A stretch of 64,000 nucleotides of DNA from an uncultured Candidatus Saccharibacteria bacterium (GTDB taxonomy: Bacteria; Patescibacteriota; Minisyncoccia; Phycocordibacterales; Phycocordibacteraceae). The stretch's first letter is position 1. Each line of letters opens with the position of its first letter. The DNA lies in NCBI GenBank assembly GCA_964638585.1, contig CAZXAN010000004.1, positions 708-64,707 of the forward strand. Reading direction: 5' to 3'. Position numbers and translations under genes: made by a program. The notes beneath the pieces were generated by a model. It saw only the letters and a program-made list of their open reading frames with translations. It was not told the DNA's origin and did not search any database. This document shows, piece after piece, positions 2,934 to 61,745 of the stretch.

Positions 2934-3263
2934 CTAGTGAGATTCTATTTGTTTAATTTTGAATGTAGCGTTGTCTTTGTGGCAACAATCGCAGCCATCG
3001 GTTTCAACATAGACATCCTGAGGCATGTCTGACCCGAGCTCGGCTCCTGCCGTTGTAACAAATCGATTAAAGAGTTCTGCATCAATCTCCTCTGAGAGGC
3101 CGCAGTCAGTACAAAAACGTCTAGCGACAGACTTTGGTCCTTCAAGACTAGCGTGTAGCCACTCTGGGTTTGGCGCGTACTGCTTCGTGCTCTTTTCTAC
3201 AGATATTCGGTCAAACATTTTTTCTTTTGGTTCCATATTAGTGTTTGGTATGGAGATCAACAA
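2934..3263 (-). CDS. hypothetical Cys-rich (zinc-ribbon-like) protein
   Basis: ORF with CTDCG ... CDCCH cysteine cluster; no recognisable family by eye. Confidence 0.4.
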   Translation of the reverse strand: MLISIPNTNMEPKEKMFDRISVEKSTKQYAPNPEWLHASLEGPKSVARRFCTDCGLSEEIDAELFNRFVTTAGAELGSDMPQDVYVETDGCDCCHKDNATFKIKQIESH

Positions 3264-36977: not shown

Positions 36978-37721
36978 TCAATTGTCCACAGCTTCTTTTT
37001 GTAGGGTGCGCCGCACATGAATTTCTTGCAGGGAGCCGGCAATGTTTGTTGTGATGAAGTATAGAGCGATTGCTCCAGAGGTGGTAAAGGAGATAACAGC
37101 AATAATGAAGGGGAATACGTATTTTAACTGCATGCCCATCATTTTTTGAAAGCTGGCTTGCATCCCGCCACCGTCTGACGGCTTCATTGTCCCTTGGAGC
37201 ATCATGTGGGCTTGAACGTACTGTGTGACGCCCGCGAGCACCGCTAGGACAATACTCTTGCCGGCAACAGAGATTATGCCAAGGAATTCTAACGAGACCC
37301 CTGTTGGCATTGGGGTAAATGTATATAGACGAGCAGTGTTGATCGCACTAACAGTTGAGAATGGTTCGTAATAAAAGACCCAGTACAGAGCAAGTAGAAC
37401 AGGCAATTGAATAAACACTGTTAAAATGCTCGCAAATGGGTTGACCTGCGCCTCTTTGTAGAGAGCGAGTGTCTCAAGAGCCTCTTTTTCTTTGTCTCCT
37501 TTGTGTTTTTCTTTTAACTCTTTTATCTTTGGCTCCAAGGTCTTCATTGCGCGTTGTGTCCGTGCGGCAGAGAGAGAGAAGGGGAGTAGTATGAGTCGTA
37601 TAACGATTGTTATGATGATAACCGCTATACCAACGTCAGAACCAGGAACAATCGCTACAAGCGCCACAAGGGCGTTATAGATCGGATCATAGAAGACTGC
37701 GTGGAAAAAAGAAGATATCAC
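36978..37721 (-). CDS. yidC: membrane protein insertase YidC (short form)
   Basis: YidC/Oxa1 5-TM core; located after rnpA as in the conserved rpmH-rnpA-yidC unit. Confidence 0.8.
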   Translation of the reverse strand: MISSFFHAVFYDPIYNALVALVAIVPGSDVGIAVIIITIVIRLILLPFSLSAARTQRAMKTLEPKIKELKEKHKGDKEKEALETLALYKEAQVNPFASILTVFIQLPVLLALYWVFYYEPFSTVSAINTARLYTFTPMPTGVSLEFLGIISVAGKSIVLAVLAGVTQYVQAHMMLQGTMKPSDGGGMQASFQKMMGMQLKYVFPFIIAVISFTTSGAIALYFITTNIAGSLQEIHVRRTLQKEAVDN

Positions 37722-38291: not shown

Positions 38292-39650
38292 ATGGACAAA
38301 GGAAATACGAAGGAGCTTTGGGAGTACGTTCTGACGCAGGTAGAGTTATCAGTGTCCCCCGCAAATTTCAACACATGGTTTAGAAACAGTTTTATTGTAA
38401 AGATAGGAGAGGACGGGGTTGTATATCTTGGTGTGCCAAGCCAGTTCTTTAAAGACTGGTTCCTTAAAAAATTCCACACGCTCTTGCTTAAGATCGTTCG
38501 CGATGTTTCATATGAGTTTAGAAATATTGAGTATCTTATCGTGAAAGATGAGCATCGTAAGGTACAGAAAGATAATAGAAGTTCTCGTAATGTTGGCGCA
38601 ATGGAGCTCCCTCTAGATGAGTTCTATATAAACAAAAGCGACAATTTAAATCCAAGATACACTTTTGATTCTTTTGTAATAGGTTCTTTTAATGAGCTTG
38701 CTTATGCTGCGGCGCAGGCCGCTCTAGAACGTCCAGGGATAACATATAACCCTCTGTTTATATATGGAGACACGGGGAGAGGCAAGACTCATCTTATTCA
38801 AGCGATAGGTAACCAGTTTAAAAAACAGTACCCTGGGCGAAAGGTTTTTTATCTTACATCTGAAAAATTTGTTGTTGATTATACGGACTCGGTGCAAGCT
38901 GGCACTGCAAATAGATTTAAAGACAAATATCGCAACTATGATCTTCTTATTATGGACGATGTCCAGTTTTTATCAAAAAAAGAGCGTAGCGAGGAGGAAT
39001 TGTTCCATTTGTTTAATGCTTTACACGATACAAACAAACAAATTATATTCTCTTCTGATCGGTCGCCTGTGGCTATCCCAGACATAGCAGAACGCCTTAA
39101 AGGGCGTCTTGCCAGTGGAATGACGGTAGACATAGGAGAGCCGGACAGCGAATCCCGTATGGCGATTGTTAGGAGAAAAACATCTATGCACGGGGTTTTG
39201 TTGTCTGATGATGTTATTGAATACGTTGCAACATCTATGAACGGGTCAATAAGGGAGCTTGAGGGGATGATAAACAGCATAATATGTCACGCGCAGATGA
39301 AAGGGTCTGCTCCAGACATAATAGACGTTAAACAATCATTAAGATCGTTTGCTAGACCTCAAAAAAACATATCTGTTAAAAATGTAGTTGATAAGGTTGC
39401 AGAATATTATGGAATTGATGAAGAAAGTGTTTATGAAAAGACTCGTAGAAGAGAGGTTGTACGCCCTCGTCAGGTAATTATGTATATCTTAAGAGAAGAC
39501 TTCAGTATTTCTTATCCTACAATAGGTACAAAACTTGGTGGTAGGGACCACACGACAGTTATCCACTCCTGTGAGAAGATAAAGAGGGAAATTGTTGTGA
39601 ATAGCGAGTTAGCAAAAGAGATTCAAAATATTCGCACACTTCTTGTATGA
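38292..39650 (+). CDS. dnaA: chromosomal replication initiator DnaA
   Basis: AAA+ domain (GDTGRGKTHL), sensor motifs, C-terminal DnaA-box binding HTH. Confidence 0.9.
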   Translation: MDKGNTKELWEYVLTQVELSVSPANFNTWFRNSFIVKIGEDGVVYLGVPSQFFKDWFLKKFHTLLLKIVRDVSYEFRNIEYLIVKDEHRKVQKDNRSSRNVGAMELPLDEFYINKSDNLNPRYTFDSFVIGSFNELAYAAAQAALERPGITYNPLFIYGDTGRGKTHLIQAIGNQFKKQYPGRKVFYLTSEKFVVDYTDSVQAGTANRFKDKYRNYDLLIMDDVQFLSKKERSEEELFHLFNALHDTNKQIIFSSDRSPVAIPDIAERLKGRLASGMTVDIGEPDSESRMAIVRRKTSMHGVLLSDDVIEYVATSMNGSIRELEGMINSIICHAQMKGSAPDIIDVKQSLRSFARPQKNISVKNVVDKVAEYYGIDEESVYEKTRRREVVRPRQVIMYILREDFSISYPTIGTKLGGRDHTTVIHSCEKIKREIVVNSELAKEIQNIRTLLV

Positions 39651-53068: not shown

Positions 53069-53142
53069 GCGCCCGTAGCTCAGTCTGGTAGAGCAACGGC
53101 CTTTTAAGCCGCTGGTCGATGGTTCAAATCCATCCGGGCGCA
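53069..53142 (+). tRNA. tRNA-Lys (anticodon TTT)
   Basis: GCGCCCG/CGGGCGC acceptor, D-arm TAGCTCAGTCTGGTAGAGC, anticodon loop CTTTTAA, T-arm GATGG-TTCAAAT-CCATC; no encoded CCA. Confidence 0.85.
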
Positions 53143-53143
53143 C

Positions 53144-53977
53144 ATGAAAGATTTCAAAGACCACTGTATATCCTTGCGAAAGACAGGGCACAGCATTATT
53201 GAAATTATGAGAGCAACAGGTAGAGCAAAAAGTTCTATATATACGCACATAAAAGACATTCCATTAAGCAAGGAACGCTTAAAAGAAGTAAAGAAAGCTT
53301 CTGGAGAGCGGATTAGGAAATTCGCAATAGCACGAAAAGGGAAGAGTAAACGAGATTTCAGTTCATTTCAAAAATGGACACCAGAGACAGTCTCTTTAGT
53401 TGCGCACCTCATTTTTGACGGTGGCATTTATCCTAAAAGCGGATGCACATACAACAATCGCAGTAAAACTCTGATAAATCATGTAGAAGAATGCATGCGT
53501 CTTATTTATGTGTTTGAGCCGACGCAGTACACCAATCCAGGGACTGGTGTACTGCGAATTAGCTATCACAATGTAGCTCTTGCTATATATATGAAGAAGA
53601 AGGCTAGAGAGTTATTGCATAAAATACTGCACACACCTTTAAATCTCAAAAGGGAATTTGTCAGGGCTTTTTTTGACGACGAGGGATGTATAGACTACCG
53701 CCCGGAAAAAAATAGACGGAGTATTCGTGGTTATCAGAAGGATGCGAAGATACTTCATATAACTCAGAGACTCTTGCAAGATTTTAGTATTGAATCGCGG
53801 ATTGTTCTTCCGAATGAGGTCGTCATCGTAGGGAAAGAGAATCTGATGAAGTTTAGAAAAGAAATAGATTTTTCTCCTGGCGTGTATGTGAATGGAAAAC
53901 GTTCAAACAGCAGATGGAAGAAACACATAGAAAAAAGGGAATTGCTCAGACGAGCGATAGAATCCTTTAAAAATTAG
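53144..53977 (+). mobile_element. double-motif LAGLIDADG homing endonuclease gene, free-standing, 2 nt after tRNA-Lys
   Basis: Two LAGLIDADG-type motifs (LVAHLIFDGGIY and FVRAFFDDEGCI) about 100 aa apart, N-terminal HTH-like segment; ATG at 53144 immediately follows the tRNA 3' end. Confidence 0.7.
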
Positions 53978-54981: not shown

Positions 54982-55524
54982 CTAGCTTGATGAAAGCGCC
55001 GACTTAAGTCGTGCATCTTTGCCTACGACAGTGTCTGGGATAGCCTGCAATGCCTTGCGTGCCTCGCGCTCTGTGTAGCCGAGCGCGACTAGAGTGTCAA
55101 AAACCTCTCCGTCTTCGCGTGAATGCGAATGCGGGCCGATTTTGTCCGCGAGTTCAACCAGCATCTTCTCCGCGCTCTTCTTCCCTAGTCCGACCACTTT
55201 TGTCAGATAGTTTAAGTCGCGCTTACTAATCGCGCCTTCAAGCGCCTCGCGAGATGCTCGGCGCAACACCGACAGCGCAGTTTTTGGGCCTACCCCAGAC
55301 ACCGTGAGAATAAGTTCAAAGAAGTCACGGTCTGCTGCGTCAAGAAAGCCGCAGAGCTCCAGGCCGTCTTGTTTTACTGCCAAATGCGTCGCGAGTGTTG
55401 CTGTGTCACCGACTTTAAGAGACTGCGGGGCACTCATCCGGACCTCAATGCCGAACCCTGCGACCTCAATAACGGCGCCGACAGGGCTCACTGACAAAAC
55501 CTTCCCGCTAATCTGTCTTATCAT
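54982..55524 (-). CDS. ruvA: Holliday junction DNA helicase RuvA
   Basis: MIRQISGKVLSV...OB fold, two HhH motifs (GVGPKTAL, GLGKKSAEKM), domain III. Confidence 0.85.
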   Translation of the reverse strand: MIRQISGKVLSVSPVGAVIEVAGFGIEVRMSAPQSLKVGDTATLATHLAVKQDGLELCGFLDAADRDFFELILTVSGVGPKTALSVLRRASREALEGAISKRDLNYLTKVVGLGKKSAEKMLVELADKIGPHSHSREDGEVFDTLVALGYTEREARKALQAIPDTVVGKDARLKSALSSS

Positions 55525-55591
55525 GTTTCTATCATACAGTATTTGCATTTATTTCCTGCCTACTGCATACTGCCTACTACAATCTACTTAT

Positions 55592-55861
55592 ATGGCTATC
55601 ACCAGCTCAGCAAAGAAAGCTATTCGCTCATCGGCGAAGAAGCACGTATTCAACCTCCGTCGCAAGGAGGCGATGGGTGATGCCTCAAAGGGCCTGCTTA
55701 AAGCTCTCGCGAAGAAAGATGTGGCAGGAGCAGAGAAGATGCTCCCAGCGGCCTATAAGGCAATAGATAAGGCGATGAAGCGTGGCGTTATTAAGAAGAA
55801 CACAGCGGCTAACAAGAAGTCTCGTCTCGCTCTCGCTATCAAACGCGCGAAGGCTAAATAA
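55592..55861 (+). CDS. rpsT: 30S ribosomal protein S20
   Basis: MAITSSAKKAIRSSAKKH...KNTAANKKSRLALAIK bS20 signature. Confidence 0.85.
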   Translation: MAITSSAKKAIRSSAKKHVFNLRRKEAMGDASKGLLKALAKKDVAGAEKMLPAAYKAIDKAMKRGVIKKNTAANKKSRLALAIKRAKAK

Positions 55862-56064: not shown

Positions 56065-56538
56065 TCAGAACCCGAGCCAGCCCGCCACTACGTCAGAGAA
56101 TGTGTGATGGTGCTCTTTCTCATCTACATGCTTGAGAAAGTAAGAATAGACCTTGTCAGCGTCAACTCCCTCAAGCGGGATTATAAGATGAGGAGAAAGC
56201 CAGCTAGTAGTTTTTATAGAGATCATTGGCGCGATTTTGCCTGACACATCTTCTAGGACAGAAAAAGATATCATGTTCTCAAACTGATGGATCTCGTCCC
56301 CAATAACGATACCCTGTTCTACAAGACGAAAGCGGTGCAGTGGGGGATGTTTAGCTCCATGAAGGGCGATAGCCCCTACCGCAACCACAATAAGAAATGC
56401 AAACAAATAGTTGCCAAATAATAATGAGGCGATAGTGCCAGCGACACCTATAATGCCAAGCGACCAATACCAGTCAGAACTCTTTGGGTTGTGGTCGTAC
56501 TCCGTCCCCTCCCACTCTAAGATAACGTCTTGTGCCAT
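56065..56538 (-). CDS. small membrane protein (hypothetical), last gene of the riboswitch-controlled operon
   Basis: 157 aa with two TM helices (WSLGIIGVAGTIASLLFGNYLFAFLIVVAVGAIAL). Confidence 0.4.
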   Translation of the reverse strand: MAQDVILEWEGTEYDHNPKSSDWYWSLGIIGVAGTIASLLFGNYLFAFLIVVAVGAIALHGAKHPPLHRFRLVEQGIVIGDEIHQFENMISFSVLEDVSGKIAPMISIKTTSWLSPHLIIPLEGVDADKVYSYFLKHVDEKEHHHTFSDVVAGWLGF

Positions 56539-57065
56539 GGATAAATAATAGCAGGGATTTCAAGCTTTTCGGACTGTAGTACCCACTTGTAGATTGCAGG
56601 GCTTAAACAAACAGAGAAGACGATAGTGCCGGCGAGGTGGAGAAGAGTAAATGGAATTTGTCCGGCGAGAGCAACAATAAATGGCTGGTTATTAAACAAG
56701 GGTCCAATTGTTAATCCTGTAACAGCATCATATGCAATAGTTCCAACGATGCCGAACTTCAAAAAGTTTTTGGTTGAGGCAGTGCGATTTTTAAAAAAGA
56801 AGTATGCGCCAAGACCAAGAGCTCCATAAGCTAGGGATGTTACGAGTGTCCACATGCCCCAACCACTTGTAAATGCGTCATATATAACAATGCCCAAGAA
56901 CCCAAACAAGAAGCTCCCAAGTGGACCGTAGCGTTTAGAGAACGGCATAACAGTAGCGAGCATCGGTTCAAAATTTGGTATCCGGAATGGGATGAGACGG
57001 AAGAGGAACACAACAGCCCACCCGATAAAAAATTTAAACCAGCCAGTTTGGAAAGAGATTTTCAT
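56517..57065 (-). CDS. 5-6 TM membrane protein, ECF-transporter S-component-like (BtuM/CbrT-like candidate)
   Basis: 182 aa, hydrophobic throughout with the size and topology of solitary ECF S-components; downstream of the B12-riboswitch-controlled binding-protein genes. Confidence 0.4.
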   Translation of the reverse strand: MKISFQTGWFKFFIGWAVVFLFRLIPFRIPNFEPMLATVMPFSKRYGPLGSFLFGFLGIVIYDAFTSGWGMWTLVTSLAYGALGLGAYFFFKNRTASTKNFLKFGIVGTIAYDAVTGLTIGPLFNNQPFIVALAGQIPFTLLHLAGTIVFSVCLSPAIYKWVLQSEKLEIPAIIYPWHKTLS

Positions 57066-57084
57066 AATAGTTAGGTTCAGTTTA

Positions 57085-58617
57085 CTACATTAAGTTAATA
57101 AAGAACGAGACAATGAGATTCAGCGCACGACTGAATATCCCTGCAGGTGCGGCGCTCGCCACCGCGGCGATTTGCAGTGGAGGAGGGGGAGTAACTACTG
57201 GTTTCTTCGCTTTTGTATATATGTTGCGCGCAGGGACCGGAAGAGTTGTTGTTGCACTCGTCGTGGCTTGTGTGATTTGAAGAATGCGAGTGGTAGAAGT
57301 AGCCACTGATTTAGGAAACGACTGGAGGATCATTGGCCATGATTTGCCGAGTGCGGCTGGGATTGCATATGCGGTTGCCCACACGCGAGTCTGCTTGCCG
57401 GATGATTCTGGTTCTACTCCGCCGTCAGATTGTTGCAATTTTGCGAGATGGTCTTCTTTAGTAAATGAGTTTGGCGTCCATCCACTCGGTGTCCAGCTGA
57501 GTGCGCTTATCGCTTGCCTTACCCAACTCGTAGAAAAGCTGTTGATAGAGCCATCACCATCTGGCTTCTCTCCGCGCAGATAGCCCTCGGCTCTTATGAG
57601 AGACAAGGATACATCTGGCAACATGCGCACTTGCACGAGTGCTTGGATAGCGGAAGCTGTCATATCAACACTATTGTCCCACGAGCCATTTGACTGTTGT
57701 GCAGAGAGAATGAATGTGATGATTTTTTGAATGATGTTGTCATATGCGCTGTACCCAGCGCGTAGAAGAGGGAAGAGTGCGAAGATGTCGTCATTATCAA
57801 GATGAATATCACCGACCTGCTTTCCATCAAATGCCTCCACGATTGGTGTGATGTAGTCTACAGAAGTGTCTGAATACGGATTGATGCCGAGTGCAAGAAG
57901 AGCCATCGCATGCCGTTCGTAGTCGGTTACACTTGAAAGTGTCGGGGTTGCTGTACGCATGTATTCAACGAGTTTCACTTTTGCATCTCCTGGGTCAGCC
58001 GTAGCAAACGCTATTGCTACCCAATCTGAGAGGAACGGCGAGTCAAATGAGCCGTCATCGTTTTGTTTACTCACGAGATATGCAAGCGCGTCCGTAACGT
58101 TCAATTGCGAATTCGGTATCCCACCTCCATCACCTCCTTCACCTCTACTGCTTGTAGTGGTGGGAGACGATATAAGAGAGTGTACTTTCAGCACAACAAC
58201 AGTGCTCTCAACATTTGTGGTCCAATCGGTGAGGATTAGTGACAGAGTGTCATTAAGAGACAGAGGGATGCACCCGATACCGCACTCTGCCATCGCACCA
58301 TTTTTCCATATTGCCCAATACTCGGTCGCACTAGGAGGAGTACCGTTTACGCTCTGGATATAGAGACCTAAGCTTGGATCGTTTGTGAGAGAGAAGTCAA
58401 CGAGACCAGCCTCTTTGGCCGACTGAAGCATACAGATACCGAGATAATTGCTGGGCGAACTGTCTTGAGGGAATTCGTGTGCTACGCCGTCGGTATCAGT
58501 AACTATGCAATTGTTCGGCACACTGACATTTAGTGGTTCGCCGGCATGTGCAGGCAAAGGGACAATGCCATAGAATAGGACAAGAGCTCCAAATAAATAA
58601 TTAATAACCTTTTTCAT
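57085..58617 (-). CDS. secreted prenyltransferase/squalene-oxidase-repeat (alpha/alpha-barrel) protein, transcobalamin alpha-domain-like
   Basis: Signal peptide; repeated QxxDGSW/F motifs (QNDDGSFDSPF, QQSNGSWDNSV, QQSDGGVEPES) of terpenoid-cyclase / prenyltransferase-like barrels. Confidence 0.55.
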   Translation of the reverse strand: MKKVINYLFGALVLFYGIVPLPAHAGEPLNVSVPNNCIVTDTDGVAHEFPQDSSPSNYLGICMLQSAKEAGLVDFSLTNDPSLGLYIQSVNGTPPSATEYWAIWKNGAMAECGIGCIPLSLNDTLSLILTDWTTNVESTVVVLKVHSLISSPTTTSSRGEGGDGGGIPNSQLNVTDALAYLVSKQNDDGSFDSPFLSDWVAIAFATADPGDAKVKLVEYMRTATPTLSSVTDYERHAMALLALGINPYSDTSVDYITPIVEAFDGKQVGDIHLDNDDIFALFPLLRAGYSAYDNIIQKIITFILSAQQSNGSWDNSVDMTASAIQALVQVRMLPDVSLSLIRAEGYLRGEKPDGDGSINSFSTSWVRQAISALSWTPSGWTPNSFTKEDHLAKLQQSDGGVEPESSGKQTRVWATAYAIPAALGKSWPMILQSFPKSVATSTTRILQITQATTSATTTLPVPARNIYTKAKKPVVTPPPPLQIAAVASAAPAGIFSRALNLIVSFFINLM

Positions 58618-59029
58618 ATTTCCATTCGGCTACATCGCCCGTCTTTAATGTCGTTGCCGAAACACCATTAGAAGCCAGCACTCCATTTATATAAAGAATC
58701 CAATACATGCCTCCTTCGTTTTTTGTTCCATTTATAGAGTCAACAAAGAACCCAAGACCGGCATAGTCACGGCCGTTAAATATAAAATCACTTGTTGAAG
58801 CAAGAGTACGCATCGCATCTAACACAGTCTCGCCAGATGTTATTAAAACAGAGTATGTTTTGTCACCGACCTTTAATGTTGCTCTCAATGCTTCTGGTGT
58901 AGAAGATGTTGTAGAAGGAGACTGTACAGAAGTTGTTTGAGGCGAGACCTGCTCTCGTTGTGTGTATAGAAAAACTGTTGCGATAATCGCAACTAGCACA
59001 GCACCAATTAAAATAAATTTATTTTTCAT
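58601..59029 (-). CDS. DUF4430-like secreted protein (transcobalamin beta-domain-like)
   Basis: Signal/TM anchor; C-terminal 100 aa (KVGDKTYSVLITSGETVLDAMRTL...YWILYINGVLASNG...GDVAEWKYE) matches the DUF4430 pattern; first gene after the riboswitch. Confidence 0.5.
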   Translation of the reverse strand: MKNKFILIGAVLVAIIATVFLYTQREQVSPQTTSVQSPSTTSSTPEALRATLKVGDKTYSVLITSGETVLDAMRTLASTSDFIFNGRDYAGLGFFVDSINGTKNEGGMYWILYINGVLASNGVSATTLKTGDVAEWKYEKGY

Positions 59030-59034
59030 TTCCT

Positions 59035-59160
59035 GCTCGGGAATATTGGAGTGTTGAAGATCGGACTTATCCCTCGTTTGGGACATTACCGTTGCGGCAC
59101 AGTGCAGGATTCTCACCTGACTTCCAACAACAAACCGTCCAGTCATTGTATGCTCTCGTA
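59035..59160 (-). promoter_or_regulatory. cobalamin (AdoCbl) riboswitch candidate
   Basis: Minus-strand leader contains GGAAGUCAGG-UGAGAAU-CCUGCACUGUGCCGCAACGGUAAUGUCCC (GGUGAGAAUCC hairpin plus CCGC-ACnGUAA core) and a B12-box-like AUAAGUCCGAUCUUC just upstream of the start codon. Confidence 0.5.
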
Positions 59161-59162
59161 CT

Positions 59163-59208
59163 TAAAAAGCAACAAAAAAGCCGGCGTCTCCTAGGAGACC
59201 CGGCTTTA
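59163..59208 (-). terminator. rho-independent terminator (minus orientation)
   Basis: Near-perfect 14 bp hairpin AAAGCCGGCGTCTCC-TAG-GAGACCCGGCTTT followed on the minus strand by TTTTTTGTTGCTTTTT. Confidence 0.55.
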
Positions 59209-59223
59209 CGATGGCAGAAGCGC

Positions 59224-59415
59224 CTATTCAGAGGCGTCCCTTGCCATCGACGTGTTCTTTGGCGCAGACCGGTCGTCAAAAAAGCCCCAGTACTCGTTAT
59301 TTCCTTGCGACATGGCCTGTTCTTTTTGTGCTTTGTTCCTTCGTTCCGGCACGTGCTGATGCCGGTCCTCATGCTTTTCGTTCACAGCATTCTCCCAATA
59401 GTTAATGGCGCCCAT
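59224..59415 (-). CDS. small hypothetical protein (63 aa)
   Basis: ORF MGAINYWENAVNEKHEDRHQ... with AGGTGG RBS 6 nt upstream and the above terminator just after its stop. Confidence 0.35.
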   Translation of the reverse strand: MGAINYWENAVNEKHEDRHQHVPERRNKAQKEQAMSQGNNEYWGFFDDRSAPKNTSMARDASE

Positions 59416-59755
59416 GTGAGCGCCACCTGACAAACCTACACTATGTGTTTTAAAAAAGCAAATCTCTGCGGAAAAAAAGTTTCGCAATCGTCACTAATAA
59501 CTATCTCTTTTTGACTCGTTCTTAACTTGGCGGATTGGCCTCAATGCCGTTCGTACCCTGTACTGCAATCGAGACCCAGAATTTCTCAAGACGCTCCGTG
59601 AAGTACGGGAGATAACGAAAGAATTCGATCACCCTGATGGGCAAAACCTGGCGGCTTGACATAAGACATGGTCAGCGTAGTTTGGTGGCAGAAGATTCCT
59701 CCGTATCTGCGGCTACCTGAGGATGGCTCGGGTGGCGTCAACGTGCGGGGGAAAC

Positions 59756-60271
59756 ATGTCAAAGCTCTTAGTAGCACCAATTTACGAAGATCGCGAAAAG
59801 CTACAAAAAGTAAAGGACGACAAAGAATCTGCTCGAACCTTGGTAATGGCCGAGATAACGGATATCGAGCAGCGACTAACAAGTCCGAGCATAAGCAACG
59901 AGCGCCGAACTGCCCTCACGACCGCGAAAATGCGAGCCGAAGGCAGGTTGACTACCCTCAACGCCCATATAAAAGGCATCAATCGAAAAATAGACCGGCT
60001 TGCAAAAAAAGAAAGCAAAACTCGCAAGAAGGCGCGACTGGAACGTCATATGCGGCGGATGCAACTGCTTCAAGGCGAATATCAAGTATGTCCCAGCGAC
60101 CCGTCCTCATTACTCCATGCGCTCTGGAGGATAACGAAGGCGATATGCAAGCGGAATATGGTCTTCCCTGACGATAAAGAGATTCTTCTCGTCGACCAGA
60201 TAGAAGAATTCCTGGTAGAGCACTGTCGAATTACCGAGAACGGCCAGGTGCTTCCGCCCAAGACGCCTTAG
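59756..60271 (+). CDS. hypothetical coiled-coil protein
   Basis: 171 aa from MSKLLVAPIYED; Lys/Arg/Glu-rich heptad-like segments. Confidence 0.4.
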   Translation: MSKLLVAPIYEDREKLQKVKDDKESARTLVMAEITDIEQRLTSPSISNERRTALTTAKMRAEGRLTTLNAHIKGINRKIDRLAKKESKTRKKARLERHMRRMQLLQGEYQVCPSDPSSLLHALWRITKAICKRNMVFPDDKEILLVDQIEEFLVEHCRITENGQVLPPKTP

Positions 60272-60390
60272 GCTGTTCCTCGGCCCGGGACCCCACCGTG
60301 ACATACGAAGAATCAGTTCAAACGCCGCCTCGTGCGGCGTTACTTTTTATGGATAGAAAAGGTGCCACCTTGGCAACAAATCTAGTCGAG

Positions 60391-60474
60391 CGGAAGGGGT
60401 GGGACTCGAACCCACAAGGGCTTTTGACCCGCTAGTTTTCAAGACTAGTTCCTTACCATTCGGAGCACCCTTCC
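60391..60474 (-). tRNA. tRNA-Ser (anticodon TGA), long variable arm
   Basis: Revcomp: GGAAGGG acceptor, anticodon stem CTAGT/ACTAG, loop CTTGAAA, 17 nt variable arm, T-arm GTGGG-TTCGAGT-CCCAC. Confidence 0.8.
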
Positions 60475-60478
60475 GTAT

Positions 60479-60955
60479 TTAATCTGACGTCGTTTTATTC
60501 ATCCAACTATCTTTTAAGTAATGCTCTTCGGCGTGGCAGTTGGGGCAGAGCAGTTCAAGATTACTAAGATCGTTATTACTATGATTTCTATCCTTGTGAT
60601 GAACATTTAGTATTTCCTTCTTATCATATCCGCACCGTTCACAGACCTTATCTCTTGAGTCCATTAGACGCAACTTGATCGCTCTCTCGTCTTTTACTTT
60701 ATCTTTTCTCGCTCCTGTTCGGTACTGTATACCAGTTCTATTTTTATTGGCACACGCTCGGCTACAAGTACTTGCATTTTTACTAGCAAGAATTGGGATT
60801 CCACACACAATGCATGGAGTTTCCTTTCTGCAAGCAATCCCGTAGCACTCCTGACCACAGAATACTCTTCCGCGCGCTCTCTCGGCAGGCCGTCTATAAA
60901 TCGGCTTGCTGCAGATCACGCATACAGTGTTTGGTTTTCTTGTGTACTCAGCCAC
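60479..60955 (-). mobile_element. HNH endonuclease gene with N-terminal zinc fingers, ending 5 nt before tRNA-Ser
   Basis: HNH motif NVHHKDRNHSNNDLSNLELLCPNCH plus three CxxC pairs N-terminally. Confidence 0.7.
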
Positions 60956-61006: not shown

Positions 61007-61324
61007 TTATACCTGCGGTGATGATGAAGGAACCGCAGGTGTTTGTGAACCCTTGTTGAGCTTATTAGAGCCCTTTGGACTGTACCAGATGAGATAGATG
61101 ACCTCAAGAATGCCAACCGTATTTATAACAAGAAGGGCGATAAACCACCACTTTTGCTCTGAACGTGCAGATGTCCATAGCGCGTAGCCCTTAATCGCGA
61201 TAGTCCATACAGCTAACAAAAGCATAAATGGCAAAAAGATGCTCATAAACCCGGGAGTAAACGGGGAATTGAATGCCGGAAAGTTTTGCATATATGTATA
61301 CATGCGTCGAATTGTACCATACAA
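61007..61324 (-). CDS. small two-TM membrane protein (hypothetical)
   Basis: 105 aa with two TM helices. Confidence 0.35.
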   Translation of the reverse strand: MYGTIRRMYTYMQNFPAFNSPFTPGFMSIFLPFMLLLAVWTIAIKGYALWTSARSEQKWWFIALLVINTVGILEVIYLIWYSPKGSNKLNKGSQTPAVPSSSPQV

Positions 61325-61331
61325 TTCATGT

Positions 61332-61745
61332 ATGAGATATCTCGGGGTTGATTATGGTAGCAAAAAGATCGGCCTTGCCCTCTCAGACGAGAGTGGCCGG
61401 ATGGGATTCCCACATTCAATTATCCCGAACACACAAAAGCTTTTAGACGAAATCTGCGTGTTGATCGCAAAAGAAAATGTTGGGGCAGTGGTTATAGGGG
61501 AGTCGCGCACTCTATCGGGCGAAGATAATATAATAGCGAAAGATGCCAAAGCACTTGGGAACTTGGTCACCGAGCGTGCTGGCATTCCGGTTTTTTACGA
61601 ATCAGAAGTGTTTACGAGTGCTGAGGCGCGCCGATTGCCGACCAAACAGACTAAATCGCGCAAAGTTAAACAACACACAAAAATAGATGATGCGGCGGCG
61701 GCAATTATTCTTACAAGCTATCTCTCACGCACAGATCATGGATAA
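61332..61745 (+). CDS. ruvX: RuvX/YqgF Holliday-junction-resolvase-like pre-16S rRNA nuclease
   Basis: MRYLGVDYGSKKIGLALSD...VVIGES RNase H-like YqgF signature. Confidence 0.8.
   Translation: MRYLGVDYGSKKIGLALSDESGRMGFPHSIIPNTQKLLDEICVLIAKENVGAVVIGESRTLSGEDNIIAKDAKALGNLVTERAGIPVFYESEVFTSAEARRLPTKQTKSRKVKQHTKIDDAAAAIILTSYLSRTDHG

Follow-up and report, generated by a model that had tools for sequence, protein, structure and literature searches.

A probable cobalamin riboswitch-controlled operon for corrinoid scavenging in Patescibacteria

Organization of the locus

Near one end of the window, by which we mean the whole 64,000-nucleotide stretch of DNA that was analyzed, four genes (here g1 to g4) follow a leader on the minus strand. 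In the order in which they would be transcribed, the features are as follows.

59173..59204, minus strand: terminator-like hairpin, GCCGG-GTCTCCTAGGAGAC-GCCGGC followed by a T-run (putative, read from the sequence)
59145..59172, minus strand: promoter-like site, TTGCTT at 59167-59172, a spacer of 16 nt and TACAAT at 59145-59150 (putative, from the sequence)
59052..59132, minus strand: riboswitch aptamer (Rfam RF01482, 47.7 bits)
59030..59043, minus strand: expression-platform hairpin P13 (predicted fold and near-invariant sequence in 72 leaders)
58601..59029, minus strand: g1, 142 aa, DUF4430 protein (Pfam PF14478)
57085..58617, minus strand: g2, 510 aa, beta domain plus alpha/alpha barrel (profile and fold matches)
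56517..57065, minus strand: g3, 182 aa, six-helix membrane protein of the ECF S-component type (fold search)
56065..56538, minus strand: g4, 157 aa, two predicted transmembrane segments and a C-terminal domain (ORF list, hydrophobic stretch)

The coordinates and common strand of the four genes in the ORF list of the window agree with the original prediction, and the RNA blocks that it quoted are present in the sequence. The true start of g1 is the ATG at 59029; a 181-aa open reading frame beginning at 59146 runs through the riboswitch. The terminator-like hairpin may end the upstream unit and insulate the operon. It was not reported by a simple promoter/terminator scanner, probably because of its nested stem, and neither was the promoter-like site, the -35 element of which matches at only 3/6 positions. 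Many orthologous leaders of the alignment have the (A)TACAAT(G) block of this site in the equivalent position.

The start of g4 overlaps the stop of g3 by 22 nt, and the two genes are therefore probably cotranscribed here. No Pfam or NCBIfam entry matches g4, which is 70-80% identical across Kaiserbacteria. Homologues of g4 led to five loci in three other genomes, where the gene is part of a RuvX-(DUF5652)-g4-S20-RuvA-Mur ligase neighborhood without g1-g3. On this synteny we reject g4 as a part of the importer, and its proposed membership in a B12 system is not supported; g4 would instead be a neighboring housekeeping gene in the same transcript.

The leader RNA and its expression platform

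An E-value-mode Rfam search of 58900-59500 identified 59052-59132 on the minus strand as a match to the AdoCbl riboswitch family RF01482 (47.7 bits; E=1.1e-7; model positions 21-100 of 149), which is far beyond chance, also after scaling to the whole window. The leader had been predicted to be riboswitch-like, and the minus strand of 59000-59200 indeed holds a cobalamin-clan match, albeit a sub-threshold one (47.7 versus a gathering score of 50 bits). Scanning the whole window at gathering thresholds returned tRNAs only and no riboswitch; standard annotation thus overlooks the element because its score is 2.3 bits too low for the curated threshold. Orthologous leaders do reach the gathering score in 7 of 16 related loci (50.1-53.7 bits), and this, together with the covariation in P4 and P5 described below, establishes the leader as a cobalamin-clan riboswitch.

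The aptamer is closed by P1 (59128-59132 paired with 59052-59056) and comprises P4 (GUCAGG/CCUGC), P5 (UGU-GCC-GCA), a short P6 hairpin without the peripheral extension, and the B12-box-like AAGUCCG. It shares the P4, P5, and P6 core and the AAGUCCG block with the cobalamin riboswitches of Rfam clan CL00101, has their GGAAG...GGUGA.AAUCC...GCCGCAACGG blocks, and is, like them, sited upstream of (here putative) uptake genes. In overall form it resembles compact cobalamin riboswitches that lack the P6 extension, e.g., the marine env8 class-II type. In the leader alignment, pairing reaches 100% in P5, where compensatory changes occur, and 99% in both P4 and outer P6; two of the P4 pairs show 25 and 31 double changes. 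Neither the length nor the sequence of the distal P6 stem is constant. Most leaders form a hairpin there, and five have only 2-3 nt. P1 shows 57% pairing, a figure limited by the alignment. Covariation in the leaders is 0.182 versus 0.070 in shuffles, and 89.6% of cells are paired versus 39-54% when the partners are slid.

When a covariance model built from four leaders was searched in 85 sources, the element was found upstream of g1-g2 homologues in 72, corresponding to 72 of about 77 Patescibacteria loci; it is absent in five loci that have enough upstream DNA. Directly after the riboswitch comes g1 in most loci. Among 189 riboswitch cores, the order riboswitch-g1-g2 was counted 58 times, riboswitch-g1-g2-DUF6580 26 times, riboswitch-g1-DUF6580 7 times, and riboswitch-g1-g2-g3, as in the window, 8 times, while g3 lies just upstream in 14 and is divergent in 1. 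Elsewhere, a zinc-ribbon family that is too divergent to characterize (17-22% identity, no Pfam match) is found behind the same riboswitch.

Between aptamer and g1, the minimum-free-energy fold predicts the P13 hairpin UUCC-CGAGCA-GGAA, the 3' arm of which is the Shine-Dalgarno GGA(A) and which abuts the AUG at 59029; CCCGAGCAGGA is almost invariant across the 72 leaders. Since the ribosome-binding site is buried in a hairpin adjoining the start codon, the leader is probably a translational OFF switch. A kissing-loop mechanism between L5 and L13, with the ribosome-binding site in a downstream hairpin as in the window leader, is known for cobalamin riboswitches (PMC9600662). The P13 loop might similarly pair with L5, although both L5 (GCC) and the loop of P13 (CGAGCA) are constant among the clade leaders, so that covariation lends this contact no support. 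The two invariant loops and the start codon abutting P13 distinguish the clade from known cobalamin riboswitches.

The predicted capture proteins and transporter

The g1 protein consists of an N-terminal membrane anchor, a Ser/Thr/Pro linker, and, as predicted, a DUF4430 domain similar to the beta domain of transcobalamin (Pfam PF14478; E=2.3e-12; 47.6 bits versus a cut-off of 23.8). Single-sequence PDB searches with g1 and g2 gave nothing useful. The best PDB matches of the g1 family profile are the beta domains of haptocorrin (4kki, 321-432) and transcobalamin (2bb6, 310-408), with weak E-values and full-domain alignments. DUF4430 has been placed at the C terminus of TCN proteins (PMC4350170). 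The beta domain of human transcobalamin binds cobalamin and cobinamide by itself, and assembly of the alpha half with the beta half requires cobalamin (PMC5599065). The predicted ligands of g1 and g2 are likewise corrinoids.

In g2, a signal peptide, probably cleaved after AHA, precedes a DUF4430-like beta domain (about 29-149) with two invariant Cys, a Gly-rich linker, an alpha/alpha barrel (about 174-430), a disordered Thr/Ser/Pro stalk, and a hydrophobic C-terminal helix (494-509). Pfam detects alpha/alpha-toroid signals and, at aa 80-126, a weak DUF4430 match that does not reach the cut-off (19.7 bits), and 43 of 47 homologues have an N-terminal DUF4430 match at E<0.01. Hence, g2 is the secreted alpha/alpha-barrel protein of the original prediction but not an alpha half only, and a clean split of beta and alpha over two genes is not what we observe. 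The term split is inexact because g2 carries its own DUF4430-like domain in addition to signal peptide, barrel, stalk, and C-terminal helix; the layout is beta followed by beta-alpha, with a domain order that is the reverse of transcobalamin.

The barrel itself is less informative. The window g2 has no Pfam match to Cobalamin_bind (PF01122). This profile matches 17 of the 47 homologues at E<0.01, with 5 of 8 examined above the 25-bit cut-off, but over profile positions 157-267 only and alongside equal or better SQHop_cyclase_C matches. Structurally, it is matched best by terpene cyclases rather than by transcobalamin, and on its own it does not discriminate between transcobalamin, terpene cyclases, and complement TED domains. 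The argument for kinship with transcobalamin is carried by the combination of domains and the riboswitch.

For g3, a fold search revealed the six-helix ECF S-component fold, and Pfam assigns ECF-ribofla_trS (29.1 bits versus a cut-off of 26.7). This agrees with the S-component-like nature that had been proposed but not with a specific relation to BtuM or CbrT: the g3-family profile matched no S-component among PDB sequences, CbrT and BtuM included, and the family has no invariant Cys, so that the cobalt-ligating Cys of BtuM, a solitary S-component-like B12 transporter and decyanase (10% identity), is unmatched. Structurally, FolT, RibU, BioY, and ThiT are nearer to g3 than BtuM. NCBIfam offered no informative names for the operon proteins.

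We consider g3 the probable corrinoid transporter of the module, a role that rests on its genomic displacement with DUF6580 (PF20221). The DUF6580 profile matches CbrT of the Lactobacillus delbrueckii ECF-CbrT complex (PDB 6FNP; E=4.7e-4), and g3 belongs to the same fold class and takes the same slot behind the riboswitch, which DUF6580 fills in 33 related loci (Pfam E 1e-44 to 1e-49 for four tested). An HMM census was used to count transporter linkage, as tblastn with a g3 query misses DUF6580 proteins and understates it; no locus in this census has both families, which supports g3 as the importer. The window g3 does not match DUF6580 at E<0.1, 4 of 29 homologues do match it (best 6e-6), and hhalign indicates marginal relatedness (E=0.014). 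An EcfA/A'/T module was found neither in the scanned window ORFs (20 of the largest and g1-g4) nor in the gene neighborhoods that were annotated, and the same ORFs include no ECF ATPase, T-component, or B12-dependent enzyme.

Interpretation and related systems

In our assessment, the locus is probably a cobalamin-riboswitch-controlled corrinoid scavenging operon of an ultra-small groundwater member of Patescibacteria, Kaiserbacteria-like to judge by the names of homologues, and, g4 excepted, the riboswitch-gated capture and import module originally put forward appears to be the best reading. It is unlikely that g1 and g2 serve only as a surface device for B12 sequestration or competition, with g3 an unrelated vitamin S-component and the true importer encoded elsewhere. 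Such a division would explain why the best Pfam match of g3 is of the riboflavin type, why its orthologues are often outside riboswitch control (upstream of the switch in 14 loci; unlinked and without a riboswitch in a Peptidase_M29...PAP2-DAGK-Zip neighborhood in three genomes), and why, in the HMM census, neither g3 nor DUF6580 follows g2 in 59 of 87 cases. However, g3 adjoins the module in 23 loci, with three gene arrangements among them, never occurs together with the DUF6580 occupant of the same slot, and has the occasional DUF6580-matching homologues mentioned above, while its unlinked copies in the three genomes are preceded by no FMN or other riboswitch. A different cargo, heme or another tetrapyrrole, has a precedent in the Lactobacillus sakei Lsa1836-1840 system, in which ECF S, AA', and T components together with the secreted Lsa1839 (transcobalamin-beta-like) and Lsa1840 (alpha-like) were assigned to heme uptake (bioRxiv 10.1101/864751). 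For the present proteins this seems improbable, given the cobalamin-clan riboswitch before the module in 72 of about 77 loci, which makes no regulatory sense for heme, and the CbrT-matching DUF6580 as the membrane partner at sister loci.

The structural matches of the barrel raise the possibility that g2 is an extracytoplasmic alpha/alpha-toroid enzyme of the terpene-cyclase/prenyltransferase class, or else a glycan-binding wall protein, with an indirect link to the riboswitch. This we regard as very unlikely: of the DxDD-type motif of class II terpene cyclases and prenyltransferases the invariant part is just N-D-D, without conservation of the first Asp, and g2 carries a signal peptide as well as Cys pairs outside the cytoplasm, in contrast to the cytoplasmic or membrane-face location of cyclases. 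Finally, the sub-threshold score, the alignment of model positions 21-100 only, and the unremarkable whole-leader fold energy of the window copy (z = -1.1) might be taken as signs of a decayed or non-functional remnant in this genome. That the leader should be such a remnant is nevertheless hardly credible, as the conserved blocks, P4, P5, P6, B12 box, and P13/Shine-Dalgarno hairpin are all intact, the window copy scores among the highest against the clade model (133.9 bits), and close relatives of the same architecture pass the threshold.

For the scavenging operon, we envisage the following mechanism. When cobalamin is sufficient, it would bind the compact aptamer with its short P6 and stabilize the adjacent P13, presumably via the L5-L13 loop-loop contact. 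P13 would then hide the Shine-Dalgarno GGA next to the AUG and switch off translation of g1 and, by coupling, that of the downstream genes. When B12 is scarce, the two membrane-tethered binders g1 and g2 would be displayed. With beta domain and barrel in one chain, g2 could sandwich a corrinoid in the manner of transcobalamin, whereas g1, which has just a beta domain and a short stalk, might act as a membrane-proximal shuttle. The corrinoid would then be handed from g1/g2 to g3 for import, energized by a shared ECF module encoded elsewhere or, as proposed for BtuM, by none.

Mammalian transcobalamin, intrinsic factor, and haptocorrin (PF01122 plus DUF4430) are built from the same two modules, a small beta domain and a barrel of six alpha/alpha hairpins, and profile and fold matches to both types of domain exist. 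The solved carriers are only 13-16% identical to the operon proteins and soluble, whereas g1 and g2 are membrane tethered; in g2 the beta domain (29-149) precedes the barrel (174-430), and g1 adds a beta domain in a chain of its own. Among published gene arrangements, that of L. sakei comes closest, where an ECF S-component is combined with separate exported proteins described as beta-like and alpha-like. In contrast to L. sakei, the Patescibacteria operon has no ECF ATPase and T genes, its alpha protein g2 has its own beta domain, and the cobalamin riboswitch points to corrinoids. A term search counted no mention of riboswitches in the L. sakei preprint.

BtuG of Bacteroides works in a diderm with the TonB-dependent BtuB, and an outer membrane is believed to be absent from Patescibacteria. 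To our knowledge, BtuG is not of the transcobalamin type, and its fold is probably unrelated to those of g1 and g2. The logic is nonetheless the same, in that surface high-affinity binders encoded in B12 transport loci pass corrinoids to a membrane transporter (PMC6143338).

The module occurs in over a hundred loci of many lineages, its genes annotated only as "DUF4430," "prenyltransferase repeat," "HYR domain," or "hypothetical." It is widespread in Patescibacteria yet undescribed there: literature searches for riboswitches or B12 together with Patescibacteria/CPR, or together with transcobalamin-like proteins, returned nothing relevant. With their tiny genomes, Patescibacteria are believed to rely on neighbors for cofactors, by routes of which little has been described. 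Tentatively, and with considerable doubt, one may go further and propose a B12 route in which the permuted transcobalamin relative g2 and the beta shuttle g1 form cobalamin-dependent surface complexes that deliver to g3, a new S-component-type family replacing CbrT/DUF6580, maybe without an ECF module. Animal B12 carriers would then have a prokaryotic root, and the L. sakei "heme" system would be reassigned to corrinoids.

If the proteins do bind corrinoids, the module provides a concrete, testable uptake route for Patescibacteria. It would also be the first functional assignment for bacterial transcobalamin-like proteins in the literature searched, give grounds for a second look at the heme assignment in L. 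sakei, and imply that the domain pair of transcobalamin and intrinsic factor predates animals.

A cobalamin riboswitch ahead of four tightly packed genes

The original prediction of a vitamin B12 riboswitch controlling a split transcobalamin-like operon gave ORF coordinates and RNA blocks that proved correct when the sequence was read again. Four tightly packed minus-strand ORFs (g1 to g4) lie behind the leader, and two tRNA genes come after g4 in minus-strand order:

59204-59173, minus: terminator-like hairpin and T-run, read from the sequence
59172-59145, minus: promoter-like site with a weak -35 (TTGCTT), a 16-nt spacer and a good -10 (TACAAT), read from the sequence
between promoter and g1, minus: structured leader
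58601-59029, minus: g1
57085-58617, minus: g2, overlapping g1 by 17 nt
56517-57065, minus: g3, 19 nt from g2
56065-56538, minus: g4, overlapping g3 by 22 nt

An ORF of 181 amino acids crosses the leader, opening at 59146 with an in-frame ATG that lies within the riboswitch. Both the homologues and the placement of the ribosome-binding site show that g1 in fact begins with the ATG at 59029. In public annotation the long form is given, 181 versus 142 amino acids (58601-59146, minus, in the window; 303-848 at locus L214), which hides the leader as coding sequence. In many orthologous leaders (alignment A3; 59145-59150 in the window), an (A)TACAAT(G) block recurs some 10-15 nt 5' of stem P1. This block probably represents a conserved -10 element of the promoter, in which case transcription would begin just ahead of the aptamer.

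At curated thresholds, Rfam reported only tRNAs and no riboswitch in the window, but with E-value reporting, 59052-59132 matched the AdoCbl family RF01482 at 47.7 bits (threshold 50; E = 1.1e-7). The alignment takes in stems P1, P4, P5, a short P6, and the AAGUCCG box. Rfam's own threshold was reached at 7 of 16 related loci, at some of them across the full model. A covariance model built from the window leader and three relatives found the element in 72 of 85 sources; in every case it lay on the coding strand, upstream of the same genes. Five loci with sufficient upstream DNA lacked it. Across the 72 aligned sequences, pairing in P4 reaches 99%, and two of its pairs show 25 and 31 double substitutions; in P5, pairing is complete (100%) and compensatory changes occur. 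Over the whole structure, 89.6% of cells pair, versus 39 to 54% with partners slid; P1, whose 5' strand aligns poorly, was left without a pairing score. The match to RF01482, the orthologues above threshold and the covariation identify the leader, at the level of sequence, as a cobalamin riboswitch.

Lacking a peripheral extension of P6, the aptamer belongs to the compact type. The distal P6 stem varies in length and sequence almost leader by leader, forming a hairpin in most and being cut to 2-3 nt in five (L021, L028, L031, L032, and L072). Longer P6 stems repeatedly show a CC(U/C)GAG ... CGA(A/G)GG internal-loop motif (e.g., L005, L025, L065, L069, L009, and L062; A3), possibly a kink-turn-like module.

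The block CCCGAGCAGGA, nearly invariant among leaders, folds into a hairpin (UUCC-CGAGCA-GGAA, 59043-59030) in which the Shine-Dalgarno sequence forms the 3' arm. Within this clade the P13 hairpin adjoins the AUG, and no terminator was found downstream of the platform hairpin. The leader is most likely a translational OFF switch. In characterised cobalamin riboswitches, L5 and L13, the loops of P5 and P13, relay ligand binding by forming a kissing loop (PMC9600662). In the present leaders neither L5 (GCC) nor the P13 loop varies, which is consistent with such a contact but offers no covariation in its favor. Leaders of the L011, L025, L033, L040, and L043 type carry a 5' hairpin (e.g., UCCGC...GCGGA), with a 3' arm that doubles as a possible P1 partner of AUCCGU, which lies further 3' than the B12 box. 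Such a three-strand arrangement, absent from the window's leader, could be an alternative-pairing switch.

Candidate capture proteins

In the g1 product, a Ser/Thr/Pro linker joins a membrane anchor to a DUF4430 domain (Pfam, E = 2e-12), the C-terminal domain of TCN proteins (PMC4350170). The best PDB matches of the g1-family profile are the full beta domains of haptocorrin and transcobalamin, at weak E-values of 0.11 and 0.45 but with alignments that extend over the entire domain. For g2 there are more than 800 homologues, nearly all in Patescibacteria, with names including "DUF4430 domain-containing," "prenyltransferase/squalene oxidase repeat-containing," and "HYR domain-containing." As modelled by AlphaFold2 (pLDDT 79.5), g2 begins with a signal-peptide helix, followed by a beta domain that spans residues 29-149 and contains two invariant cysteines. 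A flexible linker then leads to an alpha/alpha barrel (174-430), and the chain ends in a disordered stalk and a C-terminal helix. Of 47 homologues, 43 match DUF4430 in the N-terminal domain, for which a profile search also gave matches to the haptocorrin, transcobalamin, and intrinsic factor beta domains; many homologues carry additional N-terminal Ig-like domains (HYR, Big, cadherin-like).

The barrel matches SQHop_cyclase_C (37/47), TED (25/47), and Cobalamin_bind (17/47, several exceeding Pfam's cut-off) and is therefore generic when taken alone; the catalytic DxDD is unconserved in the g2 family. What is specific is that, behind a B12 sensor, the barrel is both fused to and paired with DUF4430 domains. 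The layout is beta / beta-alpha rather than one domain per gene, g2 having its own beta domain. On its own, the beta domain of human transcobalamin binds both cobalamin and cobinamide, and it assembles with the alpha half only if cobalamin is present (PMC5599065), behavior that makes a multi-chain sandwich mechanistically plausible by analogy.

The candidate transporter and other genes behind the riboswitch

The original prediction tentatively took the two membrane proteins, g3 and g4, as the importer. The match of g3 to the riboflavin-type S-component family is barely over the Pfam threshold, and the g3-family profile found no match among solved structures by sequence. A metagenome scan for the invariant riboswitch core, with an HMM census of the collected loci, yielded 189 cores.

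Arrangements among the 189 riboswitch (RS) cores
RS-g1-g2: 58 loci
RS-g1-g2-DUF6580: 26 loci
RS-g1-DUF6580: 7 loci
RS-g1-g2-g3, the window's type: 8 loci
g3 just upstream of the riboswitch, same strand: 14 loci
g3 divergent: 1 locus

In this census g3 and DUF6580, the membrane-protein family in its slot at sister loci, never occurred at one locus. Four DUF6580 proteins were scanned (Pfam, E = 1e-44 to 1e-49), and their profile matches CbrT, the S-component of ECF-CbrT (6fnp), with E = 4.7e-4. The relation of g3 to DUF6580 is marginal (hhalign E = 0.014 over TM1-3, with a shared RLxP...NFxP motif; 4 of 29 g3 homologues match DUF6580). It is mainly this mutual displacement that points to g3 as a putative corrinoid transporter, but in many genomes g3 lies outside the switch. 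Three orthologues in long contigs sit in a Peptidase_M29 ... g3 ... PAP2, DAGK, Zip neighborhood, with no riboswitch of any kind at these loci. BtuM-like cobalt ligation by g3 is unlikely because its cysteines are unconserved, and no ECF ATPase or T-component was found among the window ORFs scanned or the neighborhoods annotated.

A minimal module of riboswitch, DUF4430 protein, and DUF6580, without the barrel protein, occurs at L101, L117, L121, L140, L147, L149, and L211, which suggests that the lone beta-domain protein is the transporter's partner. Elsewhere, the riboswitch core lies directly 5' of a very divergent, apparently cytoplasmic protein of 400-580 amino acids (L097, ~1073-2638, +; L129, L155, L109, L162, L164, and L165). 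This protein has no Pfam family and ends in a CxxC...CxxC zinc ribbon, usually after a small G-C-(A/G)-G motif; at L140 it is the third gene, after DUF4430-DUF6580. It may be a second member of the B12 regulon. L147 (minus) has two riboswitch copies 1.1 kb apart (cores 2002-2020 and 3091-3109), one before an uncharacterised ORF of 564 amino acids with a Lys-rich C terminus, the other before g1 and DUF6580. Relatives of the former follow the riboswitch at L124, and a separate, unrelated family of acidic ORFs (580-590 amino acids) does so at L105, L120, and L156.

The setting of g4 and comparison with known systems

The two-transmembrane protein g4, which probably shares a transcript with g1-g3 in the window, matches no family. 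Across Kaiserbacteria its identity is 70-80%, with a constant length of 157 amino acids. At five homologue loci (three distinct genomes) it lies between RuvX, in some with DUF5652 beside it, and S20-RuvA-Mur ligase-LTD-LAGLIDADG, and g1-g3 are absent. The window has the same flanks:

61239-61745: RuvX-like ORF, translation read against Pfam labels of syntenic genes
61007-61324: DUF5652-like ORF, read likewise
within 55304-55861: S20, precomputed Pfam label
54982-55548: RuvA, precomputed Pfam label
53144-53977, plus: LAGLIDADG, precomputed Pfam label

The riboswitch-g1-g2-g3 block thus sits as an addition ahead of g4, accompanied by an HNH-like ORF, a tRNA, and small ORFs, and we find no evidence for the proposed part of g4 in the B12 system. 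Between the DUF5652-like gene and the operon, 59224-60955 holds an HNH-motif ORF (60479-60955, minus), a long-arm tRNA (60391-60474, minus), and unannotated small ORFs; being extra relative to other Kaiserbacteria, this stretch suggests a variable or insertion-prone site. The LAGLIDADG-type ORF begins two bases past a tRNA gene (53069-53142, plus), and related genomes hold an ORF of that family at the same syntenic position. Elsewhere, dnaA (38292-39650, plus) and YidC (36978-37721, minus) lie near the cumulative GC skew minimum (32-36 kb), so that the replication origin is probably within the window.

B12 uptake under riboswitch control is common. Surface capture proteins are known from Bacteroides (BtuG; PMC6143338), and two S-component-type B12 transporters, ECF-CbrT and BtuM, have been characterised (PMC5997447, PMC6072759). 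Among described gene arrangements, lsa1836-1840 of L. sakei comes closest; this ECF system, whose exported transcobalamin-beta-like and alpha-like proteins are encoded separately, was assigned to heme uptake (bioRxiv 10.1101/864751). Our literature search found no paper tying DUF4430 proteins to a B12 riboswitch and no description of the RS-g1-g2(-g3) module in Patescibacteria. Judged from sequence, the original observation is real and its reading largely correct, with binding and transport as predicted roles, and the module is a lineage-wide version of an already known type of system.
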